From an uncultured bacterium (GTDB lineage Bacteria > RBG-13-66-14), in the NCBI GenBank assembly GCA_964577465.1, contig CAZNZF010000001.1:68785-132784 (forward strand): a stretch of DNA of 64,000 nt, given 5' to 3'. A program made the translations under genes and the position numbers. Positions 51,897-58,455 of this stretch are shown here, in pieces. Position 1 is the stretch's first letter. Each line of letters starts with the position of its first letter. The notes beneath the pieces are model-generated. The model searched no databases and had not been told where the DNA came from. It was given only the letters and a program-made list of their open reading frames with translations.

Positions 51897-52087
51897 ACGC
51901 GACCAATCCTACGGGCCGCCGGGGCGTCAAGTCAAGTGTCGCGGCTTCGACCGCAGACTAACGAGGAACCGTATACAAAAAACCAAGACATCGGGCCTTG
52001 GTCGGTCGTGTTTCGTTCGATCTATTTTCGGGATTGGGCACCGTCCGCGTAAAGCCTCGGCCGGTTCGGTCTCGCCGGGCTTCCCGC

Positions 52088-52795
52088 TCAGCTCCGCAGA
52101 AGGTTTAACAGCCGGTTCAGCTTCCTATCCCGGGAGAGCTTGCGGTGGTTGAATTTCCACGCGTACTCGGCGAGGTACAGGGGGAGACGGTTGTAGCGGA
52201 TTCCGCCCCTCCCGACCAGGTTTTCCTTGAGGTAGGACCAGAAGCTCGTGAGCAGTTCAATTTGACCTTCTGCTCCAATTTGACACACTTCATTCACACA
52301 CCCCTCTTCGGATTCGCCCTTGGGCAGCCACCGCACGATGGACAGGGAGACGGGCTCCGACTTCATTTTCGACAACAGGAGCGACCGGCCCTCGGCGGGC
52401 AGCGCCGTTGCGTAGACCGTTTTACCCTGTACTATTAAAATATAGAGAGGCCGTTTACGCGTATTTTCCAACGGAAAAGCACTTGAAACGCTTTCAAGGG
52501 CTTCTTCCGTATGCCTCGTTAAAATACCTTGTTGGGATTCCGTTATCGCCCGGCGGAGAACCTGTAGTGACCTCAATACACGGCGTCTTTCTATATGCGT
52601 TTCAGTCGCAATATAATTACTGCTATTGTCATTGATAAACTGTCGAATAATCGCCTCCCACTGCTCCGTGCGCAACCTGAGCGGAAGCTGATCCGGCTTC
52701 CACTCGTACCGACAGGCGCTGCACATGAGCTTGTCCCGGCGTACGCGGTACAGTTTAGAGTTTCCGCACCTGGGGCATATACTATTGGAAATCAT
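52088..52795 (-). mobile_element. IS1595-family-like transposase ORF (probably truncated or degenerate) in a lower-GC island
   Basis: N-terminal zinc ribbon CPRCGNSKLYRVRRDKLMCSACRY. The C-terminal LYLAEYAWKFNHRK resembles the conserved IS1595 tail, but the middle is too short for a full DDE domain. Local GC is visibly lower than in the flanks. Confidence 0.5.
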
Positions 52796-52973
52796 AGCGA
52801 TATGGGTGGCTGAACTGGAACTATGTCAATATGATACGCATAACTGGGCACAGATTCCGAATGTTATATTAGTATGACCCCGGTGTCAACTATTGTCTGC
52901 ACCTCTTGACAACGAGGACGCCCGCTGGTAGTTTTTACGGCTTGCTAAGTGCAACTTGTATACCAGAGGCCGG

Positions 52974-54990
52974 TGTGTCTAAATTCCAACTAGTAACCGA
53001 CTACGCCCCCAAAGGGGACCAGCCCACGGCCATCGACGCGCTCGTCAATGCGCTCGATGAGGGCAAGAAGTACAACGTCCTCCTCGGCGTCACCGGCTCG
53101 GGCAAGACCTTCTCCGTGGCCAACGTGGTCGCGCGGGTCAACCGCCCCACCCTCGTCATCAGCCCCAACAAGACCCTGGCGGCCCAGCTCTACTCCGAGT
53201 TCAAGACCCTCTTCCCCTACTCGGCCGTGGAGTACTTCGTCAGCTACTACGACTACTACCAGCCCGAGGCCTACATCCCCTCCACCGACACCTACATCGA
53301 GAAGGACTCCAGCATTAACGAGCAAATCGACAAGCTGCGCCTCTCCGCCACCGCCTCCCTCCTTAGCCGGCGCGACGTCCTCATCGTGGCGTCCGTGTCC
53401 TGCATCTACGGCATCGGCACCCCCGAGGACTACGAGGCGATGAGCGTGAAGCTCTTCTCGGGCGACCACTTCGAGCGGGACGAGCTCCTGGAAAAGCTCG
53501 TGGACATCCAGTACACGCGCAACGACATCGATTTCAGCCGCGGCCACTTCCGCGTGGCCGGCGACATCGTGGACGTCTACCCGGCCTACGGCGACACCGG
53601 CCTGCGCGTCGAGTTCTTCGGCGACGAGATCGACCGCCTGTCGGTCATCGACCCGCTCACGGGGAACCGCATCAACGACCTGGCGACGTTGACCGTCTTC
53701 CCCGCCCGCCACTTCGTCAGCCAAACCTGGCGCCTGGAGCGGGCCATCCGCTCCATCGAGCAGGAGCTCGAGGAACGCCTCGTCGAGCTGAAAGGCGCGA
53801 ACAAGCTCCTCGAGGCCCAGCGCCTGGAAAGCCGCACACGCTACGACCTGGACATGCTGCGCGAGGTGGGCTACTGCAACGGCATCGAGAACTACTCCCG
53901 CCACCTGGGCGCCCGGCCGCCGGGCAGCCGCCCCAACGTCCTGCTGGACTTCTTCCCCAAGGACTGGCTCCTGGTCATCGACGAGAGCCACGTGGCCCTG
54001 CCCCAGCTCCACGGGATGTACAACGGGGACTACTCGCGCAAGAGCACGCTGGTGGAGCACGGCTTCCGCCTGCCCTCGGCCCTGGACAACCGGCCGCTCA
54101 AGTTCGAAGAGTTCGAGGGCATGGTGAACCAGGTCATCTACACCTCGGCCACGCCCAGCGCCTACGAGATGGAGCACGCCGCCGAGAACGGCATCGTCAC
54201 CGAGCAGATAATCCGCCCCACCGGCCTGGTGGACCCCGAGATACAGGTCCGGAGCTCCGAGGGGCAGGTCGACGACCTGATGACGGAAATTCGGGAGCGC
54301 ATCGCCATGGGCCACCGGACCCTGGTGACCTGCATGACCAAGCGCATGGCCGAGGACCTGGCCGAGTACCTCTCCGAAGCGGGCATCACCTCGCGCTACC
54401 TGCACTCCGAAATCGACACCATCGAGCGGGTGGAAATCATCCGCGGCCTCCGGCTGGGCGAATTCGACGTCCTGGTGGGGATCAACCTGCTACGCGAGGG
54501 GCTGGACCTGCCCGAGGTCTCCCTGGTGGCGATTCTGGACGCGGACAAGGAGGGCTTCCTGCGGAACGCGCGCAGCCTCATACAAACGATAGGCCGATGC
54601 GCCCGAAACGTCAAGGGCCGCGTGGTCATGTACTGCCGCGACGGCAGGCCAAGCGGGGCCATGCGTGAGGCCATCGGGGAAACCGAGCGCCGCCGTGACA
54701 TCCAGCTGGCCTACAACGAAAAGCACGGCATCGTGCCGAAGACCATCGTCAAGACCCTCGAGGCCGTGCGCGCCGGGACCACCGTCGCCGACTCCCGGAC
54801 CGCCGAGTCGGAGCACGCCATCCAGGCCGAGAAGATGGAACGGGCCCTGGGGCAGCTCGACACCCTGGAGCGTATCCGCCAGCTCGAGCAGGAGATGCTC
54901 GTGGCGGCCGAAAGCCTGGAGTTCGAAAAAGCGGCCGCACTGCGCGACCGCATCAAGGCCCTGGCCAAGGAGATGGACCGGAAGGCCTGA
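52974..54990 (+). CDS. uvrB: excinuclease ABC subunit B
   Basis: The GTG start gives [20 protein letters not shown]. Walker A GVTGSGKT, the beta-hairpin, helicase motifs, and the C-terminal UVR motif [13 protein letters not shown]. Confidence 0.9.
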
Positions 54991-55071
54991 CGAAGGCCAT
55001 GAGAACCGCAGCCGTCCCTTCATGGGCGAAAAGGAAGAGCTGGCGGGATTATGCCCGCGCCGCATACAGCC

Positions 55072-55548
55072 ATGAGCGACGAGGATACGACCGAACGGGA
55101 AAGAAAATGGCAGAAGGTCCTGGGGGCCGGGCTCTTCCTGGTCTTCTTCCTGGGGCTCACGCTGGGGCCGCAGCTCTTCCCCGAGTTCTTCGCCCAAAAC
55201 TTCTCCGGCGAGAAGCTCTTCGGCACGTTCGCCCGGCCGGTCCACGCCGTTTACGCCATGTTCGGGGGGCTGGCGGCCTTCCTCGGGGCGCCGTTCCTCT
55301 TCGGCGCGCTCATCGTCAAGTCGGTGAGGAAGGTGAGCCCCAAGTGGTACAATCTGACATACTTCGGCGCGGTCATTTTTTCAATCGCCTCCTTGGGGCT
55401 CATCATCGGTTTCGTCTACCACTGCGCGGGGTACGTAAAGCTCTACTACGGCAATTCGTTCGTGGCGGATAACTTCGCCTTCATCATCTGGGCCTACTTC
55501 CTCCTGCTGGGCGTCTTGCGGGTGGTCGTGACGTTGCGGAAAAAGTAA
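55072..55548 (+). CDS. hypothetical four-TM membrane protein
   Basis: Four hydrophobic helices; no recognised motif. It lies between uvrB and a duplicate of the uvrB 3-prime end. Confidence 0.45.
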   Translation: MSDEDTTERERKWQKVLGAGLFLVFFLGLTLGPQLFPEFFAQNFSGEKLFGTFARPVHAVYAMFGGLAAFLGAPFLFGALIVKSVRKVSPKWYNLTYFGAVIFSIASLGLIIGFVYHCAGYVKLYYGNSFVADNFAFIIWAYFLLLGVLRVVVTLRKK

Positions 55549-55642
55549 AGCGGAACCTCGTCTGCGTCGTTCTTCCAGACCAAAGGACGCTGCGCCCGCT
55601 TTCCTGGCTCTCTTCCACGGGGCCTTCGCCGTGGAGGGGCCG

Positions 55643-55714
55643 GAATGTGAAAGAGCGGCCGCCCTGCGCGTCCGCATCCAGGCCCTGACGAAAGAGACGG
55701 AACAGAAAGCCTGA
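55643..55714 (+). pseudogene. diverged duplicate of uvrB 3-prime end (UVR-motif fragment ECERAAALRVRIQALTKETEQKA*)
   Basis: About 80% nucleotide identity to 54921-54992. The similarity continues through TGACGAAGG and CCATGAGAA(C/T)CGC into the next start codon. Confidence 0.6.
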
Positions 55715-55728
55715 CGAAAGGGGTTACC

Positions 55729-57120
55729 ATGAGAATCGCCGCGATACTGCTCGCCTGCCTGCTCTTCCTGGCCTGCGAGGAGGAGCCCGTGACGTCCATC
55801 GACGGGGCCTGGGAGGGCGCCATAACCGTTCAGGGCATGGAAATCGGCTTCACGGTGAAGTTCGCCACCGTGGAGGGCGAGCTGACCGCCGTCATGGACA
55901 TCCCGTCGCAGATGGCCTACGGCCTGCCGCTTTCAAACGTGAGCTTCGACGGCACACAGGTTCACTTCGAGCTGGACTCCCCCGCGGGCCTGGCCGTCCA
56001 CGAGGGGACGCTGGCCGAGGACCGGATTTCCGGCTCGTTCACGCAGGGCGGCGCCGAGGGCGAGTTCCACCTGGAGCGCGTGGTTCCTGAAGAGCTGCCC
56101 TACGACACCGAGGAGGTCCACGTCGAGGCCGCTCCCGAGGTGACCCTGGCCGGGACGCTCTCCCTGCCGCGGACCGAGGGGCCCCACCCCGCCGTCATAT
56201 TAATCACCGGCTCCGGGCCGGAGAACCGCGACGAGGAGGTCTTCGGCTTCAAGCCGTTCAAGCTCCTGGCCGATTACCTCACCCCCTTGGGCGTGGCCGT
56301 GCTGCGCTGTGACGACCGCGGCGTGGGCGGCTCCACCGGCGCGGATGCCGACGTCACCACGGTGGACCTGGCCGACGACGTCGCCGCCGAGATGGATTTC
56401 CTGGCGAAGCGGACCGATATAGACCCCGGTCGGATTGGGCTCCTGGGCCACAGCGAGGGCTCCATCATCGCCGGCATGGTGGCGGCCCGGACCGGCAGGC
56501 CCGCCTTCGTCATCCTCATGGGCGGCCCGGCCTTCGACGGCGCCGAAATCGTCAAATCCCAGTTGGTGGCGCTCTCCCGCGCCGAGGGCGCCACGGATGA
56601 GGAAATCGCGAAAAGCCTCGACATGGAGGAACGAATTTTTACCGCCCTGCGGACCGGCGGGGACCTGGAAGGGCTCAAGGGAGAGGTCGCGGAGCTCATG
56701 CGCGAGTCCATCGCCGGCCTCTCCGAGGAGGAGCGCGCCGCCATCTCCGACGTGGACGCCTACGTGAATTCGACCGTCGAGGCGCAATTCGCCGCCGTGC
56801 AGAGCCCCTGGTTCCGCTTCTTCATGGACTACGACCCCGCGGGCGACCTGGCGAAAATCACCTGCCCGCTCCTGGCGGTCTGGGGCGAGTTCGACCTCCA
56901 GGTTCCCGCCGAGGAGAACCGCGCGCGGATGGAGGAGGTCCTGTCCAAGGCGGGCCACACCGACTACACCCTGGAAATCCTCCCCCGGGCCAACCACCTC
57001 TTCCAGGAGACAGAGACCGGCGCCTTCAGCGAGTACGCCGAGCTCCCCCAGGAATTCGCCCCCGGCTTCCCGGACTTAATCTCCGGCTGGCTGCTGCCCC
57101 GGGTGGGCATCCCCCAATAG
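55729..57120 (+). CDS. alpha/beta-hydrolase-fold lipoprotein (serine hydrolase)
   Basis: Lipobox LFLAC; nucleophile elbow GHSEG; length and pattern consistent with alpha/beta hydrolases. Confidence 0.6.
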   Translation: MRIAAILLACLLFLACEEEPVTSIDGAWEGAITVQGMEIGFTVKFATVEGELTAVMDIPSQMAYGLPLSNVSFDGTQVHFELDSPAGLAVHEGTLAEDRISGSFTQGGAEGEFHLERVVPEELPYDTEEVHVEAAPEVTLAGTLSLPRTEGPHPAVILITGSGPENRDEEVFGFKPFKLLADYLTPLGVAVLRCDDRGVGGSTGADADVTTVDLADDVAAEMDFLAKRTDIDPGRIGLLGHSEGSIIAGMVAARTGRPAFVILMGGPAFDGAEIVKSQLVALSRAEGATDEEIAKSLDMEERIFTALRTGGDLEGLKGEVAELMRESIAGLSEEERAAISDVDAYVNSTVEAQFAAVQSPWFRFFMDYDPAGDLAKITCPLLAVWGEFDLQVPAEENRARMEEVLSKAGHTDYTLEILPRANHLFQETETGAFSEYAELPQEFAPGFPDLISGWLLPRVGIPQ

Positions 57121-57231
57121 TCCGTCCGTCCGCCCGATGCGAACGCCCCCCCCCGCGGGGGCGTTTTGCCGTTTACACGCGCCCCGGGGGACCGTATACT
57201 CTCCCCGTTAATAAAACCGCAAAGGAGCACC

Positions 57232-58455
57232 GTGCGCGAAGACCTGGACCGGCTCATGGAAGAGCGGGGGATAGACTGGCTCTTCATCGAGGGGGGGAAC
57301 GGGGACAACCCCGCCATGCACTACCTCCTGGGCAACGCCCCCATCGGCTACTGCTCGCTGTGGAAGCCCCGAGGCGGCCGGGCGTACCTCTTCACCGGCC
57401 CCTTCGAGCGCGAGGAGGCCAAGAAGCTGCCCTTCACCGCCGTGGACACGACTAAGTACAACTACCACGAGCTGCTGGAGAAGGAGCCGGACCACCTCAA
57501 GCGGGCCGTGGAGTTCATCCGCCGCATGATGGCGGACGTGGGGGTGAAGGGGCGCGTGTCGCTCTACGGCCGCGGCGGCCTGGGCGCCAACTACCTCCTC
57601 TACCGGGCGCTCGACGCGGCGGCACCGGAGGCGCATTTCGAGCCCGAGTTCGAGAACGACGTGCTGATTACCGCCCGCGAGACCAAGGACGCGGAGGAAA
57701 TCGACCACATCCGCCGCGTCGGGAAAAAATCCTGCGAGGTTTTCGCCGAGGTGCGGAAACTGCTGGGCTCCTCCGAGGAGCGGGGCGGCAGGCTCTACAA
57801 CGCGGGCGAGCCGCTGACGGTGGGGCGTGTCAGGCGCTTCATCACCCTCGAGCTCTTCAAGCGTGGCCTGATGGAGGACGTGGGCACCATCTTCGCCCCC
57901 GGTGACGAGGGCGGCTACCCCCACTCGCACGGGACCGACTCCCGCCGGCTCGCGGTGGGCGAGCCCATCGTCTACGACATGTTTCCCCGGGAACTGGGCC
58001 ACGGGTACTACTTCGACATGACGCGCACCTGGTGCGTCGGCGAGGTCCACCCCGAGGCGGAGCGGGACTACGAGCTGGTCAAGGAGGTGCAGGCCGACGT
58101 GGAGCGCTCGATCAAGGTCGGCGAGCGTGCCTACATCTACCACAAGCGGGCGGCGGACCTCATTGCCGAGGCCGGCCACCCCACAATCATCTCCGACCCC
58201 GCGACCCAAATCGGTTACTGTCACAGCCTGGGACACGGGGTGGGCCTCGACATTCACGAAAAACCGCGCCTCGGCGGAACCGAGAAGAACCCCGACCTGA
58301 TCCAGCCCGGCAGCGTCTTCACCAACGAGCCCGGGGTGTACTACCCGGAGAAAGGCTACGGCGTCCGGGTCGAGGATACGCTCTGCGTCACGCCCGAGGG
58401 GAAGGTCGAGAACCTCACCGTGGAGCCCAAGGCGCTCTTGATTCCCCTGGGATGA
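57232..58455 (+). CDS. M24-family metallopeptidase (Xaa-Pro aminopeptidase/prolidase-like)
   Basis: Pita-bread motifs are present (HSLGHGVGLDIHE, NEPGVY, E...). GTG start with AAGGAG upstream. Confidence 0.75.
   Translation: MREDLDRLMEERGIDWLFIEGGNGDNPAMHYLLGNAPIGYCSLWKPRGGRAYLFTGPFEREEAKKLPFTAVDTTKYNYHELLEKEPDHLKRAVEFIRRMMADVGVKGRVSLYGRGGLGANYLLYRALDAAAPEAHFEPEFENDVLITARETKDAEEIDHIRRVGKKSCEVFAEVRKLLGSSEERGGRLYNAGEPLTVGRVRRFITLELFKRGLMEDVGTIFAPGDEGGYPHSHGTDSRRLAVGEPIVYDMFPRELGHGYYFDMTRTWCVGEVHPEAERDYELVKEVQADVERSIKVGERAYIYHKRAADLIAEAGHPTIISDPATQIGYCHSLGHGVGLDIHEKPRLGGTEKNPDLIQPGSVFTNEPGVYYPEKGYGVRVEDTLCVTPEGKVENLTVEPKALLIPLG

Follow-up and report, generated by a model that had tools for sequence, protein, structure and literature searches.

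We analysed a 64,000-nt stretch of the contig CAZNZF010000001.1 (the window), in which a small membrane-protein gene lies between uvrB and an alpha/beta-hydrolase lipoprotein gene, flanked by two diverged copies of the uvrB 3' end. This arrangement most probably arose by a duplicative insertion at the uvrB/hydrolase junction in a bacterium ancestral to some of the Coatesbacteria-like lineages. About 570 nt, made up of a gene for a 158-aa protein with four predicted hydrophobic helices (four transmembrane helices, 4TM) and its 3' flank, would have entered the junction, and the target would have been duplicated over ~240-290 nt (89 nt from uvrB, the spacer of 15 nt, and 135 nt or more from the hydrolase gene). 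With a duplicated fragment that reaches across the gene junction, both flanking genes would have remained intact: the first copy of the repeat (c1) would complete uvrB, and the second copy (c2) would give the hydrolase gene its spacer, ribosome-binding site and start. The redundant halves, i.e. the hydrolase start after c1 and the uvrB end before c2, would have decayed since. The features of the locus are as follows.

52906..54990, + strand: uvrB, intact (Pfam UvrB_inter, Helicase_C, UvrB, and UVR at residues 655-688, E = 4.9e-8)
54902..54990, + strand: repeat copy 1 (c1), the last 89 nt of uvrB (positions 613-701 of the uvrB 3' profile)
54991..55046 (right limit approximate), + strand: putative fossil of the original uvrB-hydrolase spacer and hydrolase 5' end (aligns with 55715-55742)
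55072..55548, + strand: inserted gene for a 158-aa protein with four predicted long hydrophobic helices (4TM; homologue starts, dN/dS, AlphaFold2)
55549..55625, + strand: non-coding, poorly conserved 3' flank of the insert (matches neither the uvrB nor the hydrolase profile)
55626..55714, + strand: repeat copy 2 (c2), uvrB 3'-end pseudogene fragment (nhmmer against the uvrB 3' profile, E = 2.9e-14)
55715..55728, + strand: retained original spacer CGAAAGGGGTTACC with a Shine-Dalgarno-like AAGGGG (matches the L088 empty-site spacer CCGAAGGGGGAAGCC)
55729..57120, + strand: alpha/beta-hydrolase lipoprotein gene, intact (Pfam Hydrolase_4, Abhydrolase_6, Peptidase_S9)

The repeated junction and its empty counterpart

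The first-pass annotation of the window had described a repeat, at about 80% identity, of ~70 nt of the uvrB end, the stop codon, the spacer and the following ATGAGAA, and the repeat holds up in our alignments. The longest direct repeat in 54000-57500 pairs 54918-54994 with 55642-55718 (77 nt ungapped, 82% identity, spacing 724 nt). Gapped local alignment pairs 54925-55012 with 55649-55742 (score 93) and spans the stop codon, TGACGAA, a 6-nt indel and then CCATGAGAA(C/T)CGC(A/C)GC, i.e. the similarity passes the uvrB stop codon, the spacer and the ATGAGAA of the next gene. Among 300 dinucleotide shuffles, scores were 19.4 ± 2.6 with a maximum of 31, and the best other 250-nt chunk of the whole 64-kb window (both strands) reached 32, so the similarity is not the background of GC-rich sequence. 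The uvrB part turned out somewhat longer than first described: using an nhmmer profile of the uvrB 3' end built from seven lineages, 55626-55714 was found to correspond to the last 89 nt of uvrB (54902-54990). Both copies hold the uvrB reading frame as far as a TGA. c1 is the functional copy, which codes for the second helix of the UVR motif and the C-terminal tail (its peptide matches Pfam UVR with E = 3.3e-7 and 30.3 bits, used as control for c2), and it has lost 6 nt of the spacer stretch kept at 55715..55728. The putative fossil after c1 includes CGAAGG, CCATGAGAACCGCAGC and a diverged ...GAAAAGGAAGAGCTGGCG. As had been noted, the second copy runs into the hydrolase lipoprotein gene, and the spacer and ribosome-binding site downstream of c2 are probably the originals serving that gene.

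An 80%-identical hydrolase orthologue from 'Candidatus Coatesbacteria bacterium RBG_13_66_14' (L090) identified the group and led to related genomes with an empty site. The uvrB gene of L088/L089 (~300-kb contigs) and L090 stands directly before the hydrolase gene: the uvrB stop is followed by a 15-nt spacer (CCGAAGGGGGAAGCC in L088) and the hydrolase ATG, and this junction contains no membrane-protein gene and no second UVR copy. Synteny is otherwise identical (MutS2, FecCD, zinc-ribbon gene, uvrB, hydrolase, M24 peptidase, C25 peptidase), and the hydrolase has 463 aa both in the window and in L088. The filled structure is found in the window, L081/82/83, L087, L084/85/86, L099, L100 and L101/L102, where the four contigs L099-L102 were added by a metagenome scan; besides that of the window, five lineages are represented, with L100 as an independent contig nearly identical to the window, and the filled alleles come from NCBI, JGI, ENA and Logan assemblies. 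These contigs have a common gene order (MutS2, a 123-aa open reading frame (ORF), FecCD and the zinc-ribbon gene on the minus strand, then uvrB, 4TM, UVR remnant, hydrolase, and M24 and C25 peptidases). The 158-aa protein was found in only six 90%-identity clusters among 5.8 billion proteins (84-100% identity). In a more distant lineage (L091/L092) the junction holds a 337-nt AT-rich non-coding spacer (L091 5664-6000) in a GC-rich genome, and this spacer has no cassette trace in a profile search, no called gene and no Rfam match. Three junction states were thus found, i.e. empty (L088, L090), with cassette (the window and others), and with the AT-rich spacer (L091). A contig scan with full-length UvrB returned only relatives of at most 62% identity from other phyla, with no useful synteny. 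All c2 copies have changes in common compared with functional uvrB ends (e.g. GAG to GAA and TTC to T(G/T)T), which shows that the duplication happened once.

The event had been described as an insertion of roughly 700 bp or a duplication followed by replacement; our results support a duplicative insertion, with a larger duplicated target. The extent of the target is seen in relatives. L084 and L081 have a longer spacer between uvrB and 4TM than the window, and these spacers match the hydrolase 5' profile at positions ~+37 to +135 (nhmmer E = 1.1e-8 for L084 and 2.9e-5 for L081; the pairwise score of the fossil is 46, vs 19.7 ± 2.7 in shuffles). The fossil in L084/L081 keeps a Shine-Dalgarno-like GAGGGGG, a mutated start (GTAAGAATCGC), a shortened signal-peptide region, and GAGGAGGAGCCGGCGAGCATCGACGG, which codes for the EEEPASIDG stretch of the hydrolase mature N-terminus. 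Given this fossil, the duplicated target would be larger than the repeat visible in the window, ~240-290 nt, and may include as much as ~180 nt of the hydrolase gene. According to the multiple alignment, the window has lost ~78 nt of the fossil relative to L081/L084, and L087 has lost nearly all of it. The insert proper consists of the 477-nt gene and ~80-90 nt of poorly conserved 3' flank, which varies between lineages and is partly deleted in L081 and L087.

We infer the molecular mechanism of the original event from the architecture only, and two routes would produce the observed order. The first is a single crossover (Campbell-type, or insertion-duplication) of a circle carrying the junction fragment. 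The second is template switching, in which replication would run from uvrB on into the hydrolase gene, switch to an ectopic 4TM template and then return to uvrB at -89. It is also possible that a simple tandem duplication came first and that an independent insertion then hit its junction exactly, but this would need two rare events.

Both repeat copies (54931-54951 and 55655-55675) contain a GC-rich imperfect palindrome at the GCGGCCGC site (GCGGCCGCACTGCGCGACCGC). On the minus strand the palindrome scores as a terminator-like hairpin (folding at ~ -11.5 kcal/mol), and its presence may have promoted slippage or a switch of template at this place. The 55047-55071 stretch directly upstream of the 4TM start (GGCGGGATTATGCCCGCGCCGCATACAGCC) is kept in filled lineages and contains a short hairpin, and it has no Shine-Dalgarno-like sequence, unlike the AAGGGG ahead of the hydrolase gene. 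The 158-aa ORF is separated from uvrB by 81 nt and from the hydrolase gene by 180 nt, and the hydrolase gene is followed by the M24 peptidase gene in the window. The longest ORF of uvrB has a TTG start; orthologues are 669-691 aa long, which suggests a later real start, and those in relatives share 85-95% identity. A terminator scan gave weak sites only, including a weak terminator-like hairpin in the 3' flank (55550-55565), a promoter scan of the locus found none, and an Rfam scan of 52000-58000 gave no matches.

History of the cassette and of its flanking genes

To place the filled and empty lineages, we used a neighbour-joining tree based on the DNA of uvrB, hydrolase, M24 and C25. The tree is (L091,(L084,((L088,L090),((window,L081),L087)))), with 100% bootstrap for the clade excluding L084, and L101/L102 group with the filled relatives of the window. 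Because the filled L084 lies outside a clade that contains both filled and empty lineages, the filled state is not monophyletic on the host-gene tree. The cassette is also less diverged than its surroundings. At four-fold sites, the window and L084 differ by 0.10 in 4TM vs 0.32 in the four flanking genes (Fisher p = 4e-5), L081 and L084 by 0.14 vs 0.34 (p = 8e-4), and L087 and L084 by 0.16 vs 0.32 (p = 0.01); for the window and L087, 4TM and flanks agree (0.14 vs 0.16). The non-coding parts of the cassette show the same compressed divergence. In addition, L101 (whose uvrB belongs to the window's clade) and L084 have in common an odd uvrB tail and spacer, GGATTCCTGAACCACAATCAT. This discordance points to homologous recombination having carried the cassette from lineage to lineage, to its loss from L088/L090 through the repeats, or to both, and we infer that homologous recombination also underlies the later movement or loss of the cassette in general.

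We note that the uvrB tails of L084 (5800-5860) and L101 (~630-670) end in ...ELDS and ...EMDS, respectively, each followed by the stop codon and then AACCACAATCAT, and that the tails of other lineages end in ...QKT or ...RKA. The L084 and L101 uvrB genes are otherwise not close despite the common tail.

One alternative concerns the polarity of the change: the filled state could be ancestral, and L088 and L090 could have lost the cassette by recombination between the repeats. We consider this possible, if on balance doubtful. The position of the filled L084 outside the clade of the empty lineages agrees with it, as does the empty-site uvrB tail (..KELEQKT and the stop codon, then CCGAAGGGGG), which is nearer to c2 than to the filled c1, as a crossover between c1 and c2 would leave it. 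The fossil, too, looks ancestral, which argues for an old first event. On the other hand, the cassettes of L084 and the window clade have diverged by only one third to half of the synonymous divergence of the flanks, the filled lineages nearest the window form one clade that is sister to the empty ones, and the outgroup L091 has no cassette trace. An ancestral filled state would still need the original duplicative insertion, and alters its timing rather than its nature.

Several points weigh against duplicative insertion with later exchange as we have described it. The window's own hydrolase-start fossil has only ~22 clearly alignable nt, and it is the relatives alone that show the larger duplication. 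We found neither a donor locus nor a circular form nor a recombinase. The fossil mixes hydrolase-start features of the window clade and of L084, which fits an old event and is awkward with the low synonymous divergence of the cassette. As 4TM is short, codon-biased and codes for a membrane protein, part of this low divergence could be due to constraint instead of transfer; counter to constraint, the ratio of cassette to flank divergence ranges from 0.31 to 0.9 between pairs. Finally, L088 and L090 may either never have been filled or have lost the cassette by repeat recombination.

Because the cassette is bracketed by copies of its own target junction, it could even be a recombinase-free, 'homology-addressed' mobile unit: RecA would excise a circle with one repeat and the gene, and a single crossover would re-insert it at empty junctions of relatives. 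We regard this as rather unlikely. If true, it would explain the patchy distribution, the cassette genealogy that is younger than the host genes, and the apparently chimeric copies of L084, in which c1 has a native-like 5' part and an L101-type tail, and the 5' part of c2 is of the c2 type and its 3' part of the functional type. In the window, the longest exact run common to c1 and c2 today is 10 nt. Given the requirements of RecA, copies with such short exact runs should recombine inefficiently, so the insertion in the window should be effectively locked in.

The second repeat copy and the inserted gene

The first-pass annotation had taken the second copy for a UVR-motif pseudogene fragment, and its state in the window and in relatives agrees with this. 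In the window, c2 reads ...ECERAAALRVRIQALTKETEQKA up to the stop codon, with F to C and D to V changes within the UVR motif, and its only ORF has 27 codons and a GTG start (55631-55714). Its peptide has no match to Pfam UVR (PF02151) even at E <= 10; the same search with c2 of L081, which has an L to P change, also gave no match. L087 c2 contains two frame-breaking indels, and L101 c2 an in-frame TAG. Only L084 has an intact c2, a 44-codon ORF that matches Pfam UVR (26.3 bits, E = 6e-6) over positions 14-33 of the 36 of the hidden Markov model (HMM). The divergence among c2 copies (0.13-0.23) is about that of four-fold sites, i.e. about neutral. By these signs, c2 is a decaying pseudogene fragment. 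A full second UVR-containing gene in relatives would have spoken against the earlier proposal, and what the relatives have is half a motif, mostly broken.

It is accordingly quite improbable that c2 is functional, either as a small stand-alone UVR-motif protein or as a regulatory leader of the hydrolase gene. The intact ORF of L084 and its Pfam match would suit such a role, the differences between c1 and c2 in L084 are mostly synonymous, and the Shine-Dalgarno-like AAGGGG just downstream is conserved. Against this, c2 spans only the second helix of the UVR helical hairpin, the copies other than that of L084 are damaged, the divergence among c2 copies is about neutral, and the promoter scan found no promoter-like site.

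We also note that L099 (4349-4516), an L081-like contig whose 4TM is 99% identical to the 4TM protein P0002, leaves L081 inside the c2 tail and continues with unrelated sequence (...GGAGATTGATCTGAAGGTGGAGGAGTAGCTATGTCCGAAGAACGG) until the contig stops. Either the strain has a different arrangement there, or the end of the contig could be chimeric.

The membrane-protein ORF is as previously described (55051/55072-55548), with its start now settled at 55072 (158 aa), since all homologues start at the equivalent position. The ratio of non-synonymous to synonymous divergence (dN/dS) is 0.22-0.47, and the gene is under purifying selection. Its codon usage is host-like (G+C content at third codon positions, GC3, of 0.89 vs 0.90-0.92). 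A Pfam search with six family members at E <= 10 found no family, including Tic20 and DUF4870, and gave only sub-threshold matches to DUF2254 (best E = 0.0014); the JGI label 'Tic20 family' (P0006) was therefore not reproduced. An AlphaFold2 model based on ten sequences contains four long helices (predicted local distance difference test score, pLDDT, 83; predicted template modelling score, pTM, 0.71), whereas an earlier model from six close sequences was poor (pLDDT 56). A fold search with the model against PDB gave no match (best E = 2.7).

In an exhaustive profile search, four more clusters with 36-48% identity turned up among 1.84 billion representatives, and the family comprises about five 50%-identity clusters among 1.8 billion representative proteins. 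Its members have in common the motifs LGPxxFPEFF, GEKxFGxF, PFL, KWxxL, HCG and YYGN, including an invariant His-Cys pair. The homologues are found in other gene contexts. L093/L098 (378-2699) have two tandem 4TM paralogues (170 and 169 aa in L093) followed by two FMN-reductase/flavodoxin-like genes, and L095 (249-2011) has one copy followed by two FMN-reductase genes; in both cases the genes seem to make up an operon. The order is Hsp20, 4TM, Roadblock/LC7 in L097 and L103 (L103 4956-6301), and it is hydrolase-family homologue (48% identical), unannotated 222-aa ORF, 4TM, Roadblock/LC7 in L104 (1085-4739), where the 4TM homologue (45% identity) lies 1.2 kb downstream of the hydrolase homologue. 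By eye, the 222-aa ORF of L104 looks AIM24-like. With homologues in such contexts, 4TM is a member of a rare, genuine family; it did not originate de novo and reached the uvrB/hydrolase site from elsewhere. As a speculation, 4TM could be a membrane redox partner of flavin reductases, given the recurrent flavin-reductase neighbourhood and the invariant His-Cys pair. With the window and L104, the rare 4TM family is seen near this hydrolase type in two different arrangements.

Direct repeats that bracket one inserted gene, next to the 3' end of a conserved gene, the classic position of integrative elements, could also point to a mobile element (an integrase islet, an insertion sequence (IS) or transposon, or an integron cassette), with the repeats as att sites or as a target-site duplication. 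This is very unlikely: the single ORF of the insert has no recombinase or transposase domain in Pfam, the repeat search found no terminal inverted repeats, and a duplication of 89 to ~290 nt far exceeds known target-site duplications. An integron cassette with an attC site in the 3' flank was rejected, as the flank is not conserved between lineages, unlike an attC-type site. As for the IS1595-type zinc-ribbon gene nearby, empty-site genomes also have it in the syntenic position.

This zinc-ribbon gene (52088-52795, minus strand; a 235-aa ORF with an IS1595-type transposase zinc-ribbon) lies divergently upstream of uvrB. Its GC content is 0.53 and its GC3 0.64, vs ~0.66 and 0.90 in the neighbours. 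It has 235-236 aa in L088/L091, 212 aa in L081/L087 and 146 aa in L084, and it resembles a gene that has been domesticated or is decaying more than an active IS.

Still less likely is a plain tandem duplication with a unit of ~720-830 nt (the uvrB 3' end and ~700 nt of the hydrolase gene), in which the 4TM ORF would have emerged de novo from the redundant hydrolase fragment. The hydrolase 5' fossil does reach roughly to the 4TM ATG, one weak nhmmer match in L084 (E = 0.5) is near the colinear position, and the GC3 of 4TM is host-like. Yet the similarity of 4TM to hydrolase 5' or uvrB 3' DNA is not above background (blastn with word size 7, local alignments, nhmmer), and the profile-profile probability given by hhalign is 0.2%; frame-wise blastp of 4TM against hydrolase and uvrB was dominated by low-complexity off-frame matches. 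The decisive point is the homologues with 36-48% identity and conserved motifs in unrelated contexts and other organisms.

GC-rich sequence, a short repeat and a metagenome assembly as source could in principle suggest an assembly artefact, or a chance or convergent similarity from the UVR motif, and we see next to no chance of either: the score is far above the shuffles and the rest of the window, the similarity runs on through the stop codon, spacer and next start codon, and 10 or more contigs, which come from independent samples and different assemblers and carry lineage-specific substitutions, show the structure. A collapsed or mis-assembled tandem repeat, which had been raised earlier as something to check, is excluded by the presence of the structure in several lineages and by L100, which is colinear with 52026-57117 of the window with zero gaps and 30 mismatches, 0 of them within the repeats.

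Comparison with known systems

The locus is a natural example of a gene gained inside a tightly packed gene pair with neither neighbour damaged. Coatesbacteria are a candidate phylum without cultured members, and the empty, filled and differently filled alleles in these uncultured bacteria could provide a small model for the rates at which pseudogenes decay, genes are lost through repeats and single genes spread by recombination. The locus also flags a very rare family of four-helix membrane proteins that recurs next to FMN-reductase, Roadblock/LC7 and this type of hydrolase.

Several known systems have some of the observed properties. Islands of tyrosine integrases also insert at the 3' end of a gene, duplicate that 3' end as a direct repeat and leave the target gene functional; the locus differs from these islands in its lack of an integrase, in a long and diverged repeat that extends into the start of the following gene, and in an insert of just one small gene. 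The minimal mobile elements of Neisseria, reportedly described by Saunders and Snyder, likewise have alternative contents between two conserved genes. As in such elements, there are no mobility genes here. The genealogies of cassette and flanks disagree, as exchange by homologous recombination in the flanks would lead one to expect, and constraint or loss could also have a part in this; a duplicated target junction, as at the locus studied here, does not belong to the definition of minimal mobile elements.

Template switching of the kind known as fork stalling and template switching or microhomology-mediated break-induced replication (FoSTeS/MMBIR) would give the observed order in one event, i.e. 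uvrB to hydrolase (+1 to ~180), the ectopic copy, and uvrB (-89) to hydrolase. Junction microhomologies are no longer readable, and the sampled genomes contain no source copy of 4TM. Events of this type are known mostly from eukaryotes and from amplification studies in E. coli.

The product of insertion-duplication (Campbell-type) integration, which is exploited for the mutagenesis of naturally transformable bacteria, consists of target fragment, insert and target fragment, with the target fragments as direct repeats that span the junction and with truncated gene ends left as junk, and the same is seen here. Direct repeats of the target flank the insert (54902-55012 vs 55626-55742), and the empty site has one repeat copy with the neighbours adjacent (L088/L089, L090). 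The locus differs in that no circular donor, vector or replicon is visible and that the insert has only ~570 nt. In addition, the repeats are now only 82% identical, with a longest exact run of 10 nt. Compared with these systems, the locus leaves the understanding of the mechanisms unchanged and adds a well-documented case of a familiar type of event, from a phylum about which little is known.

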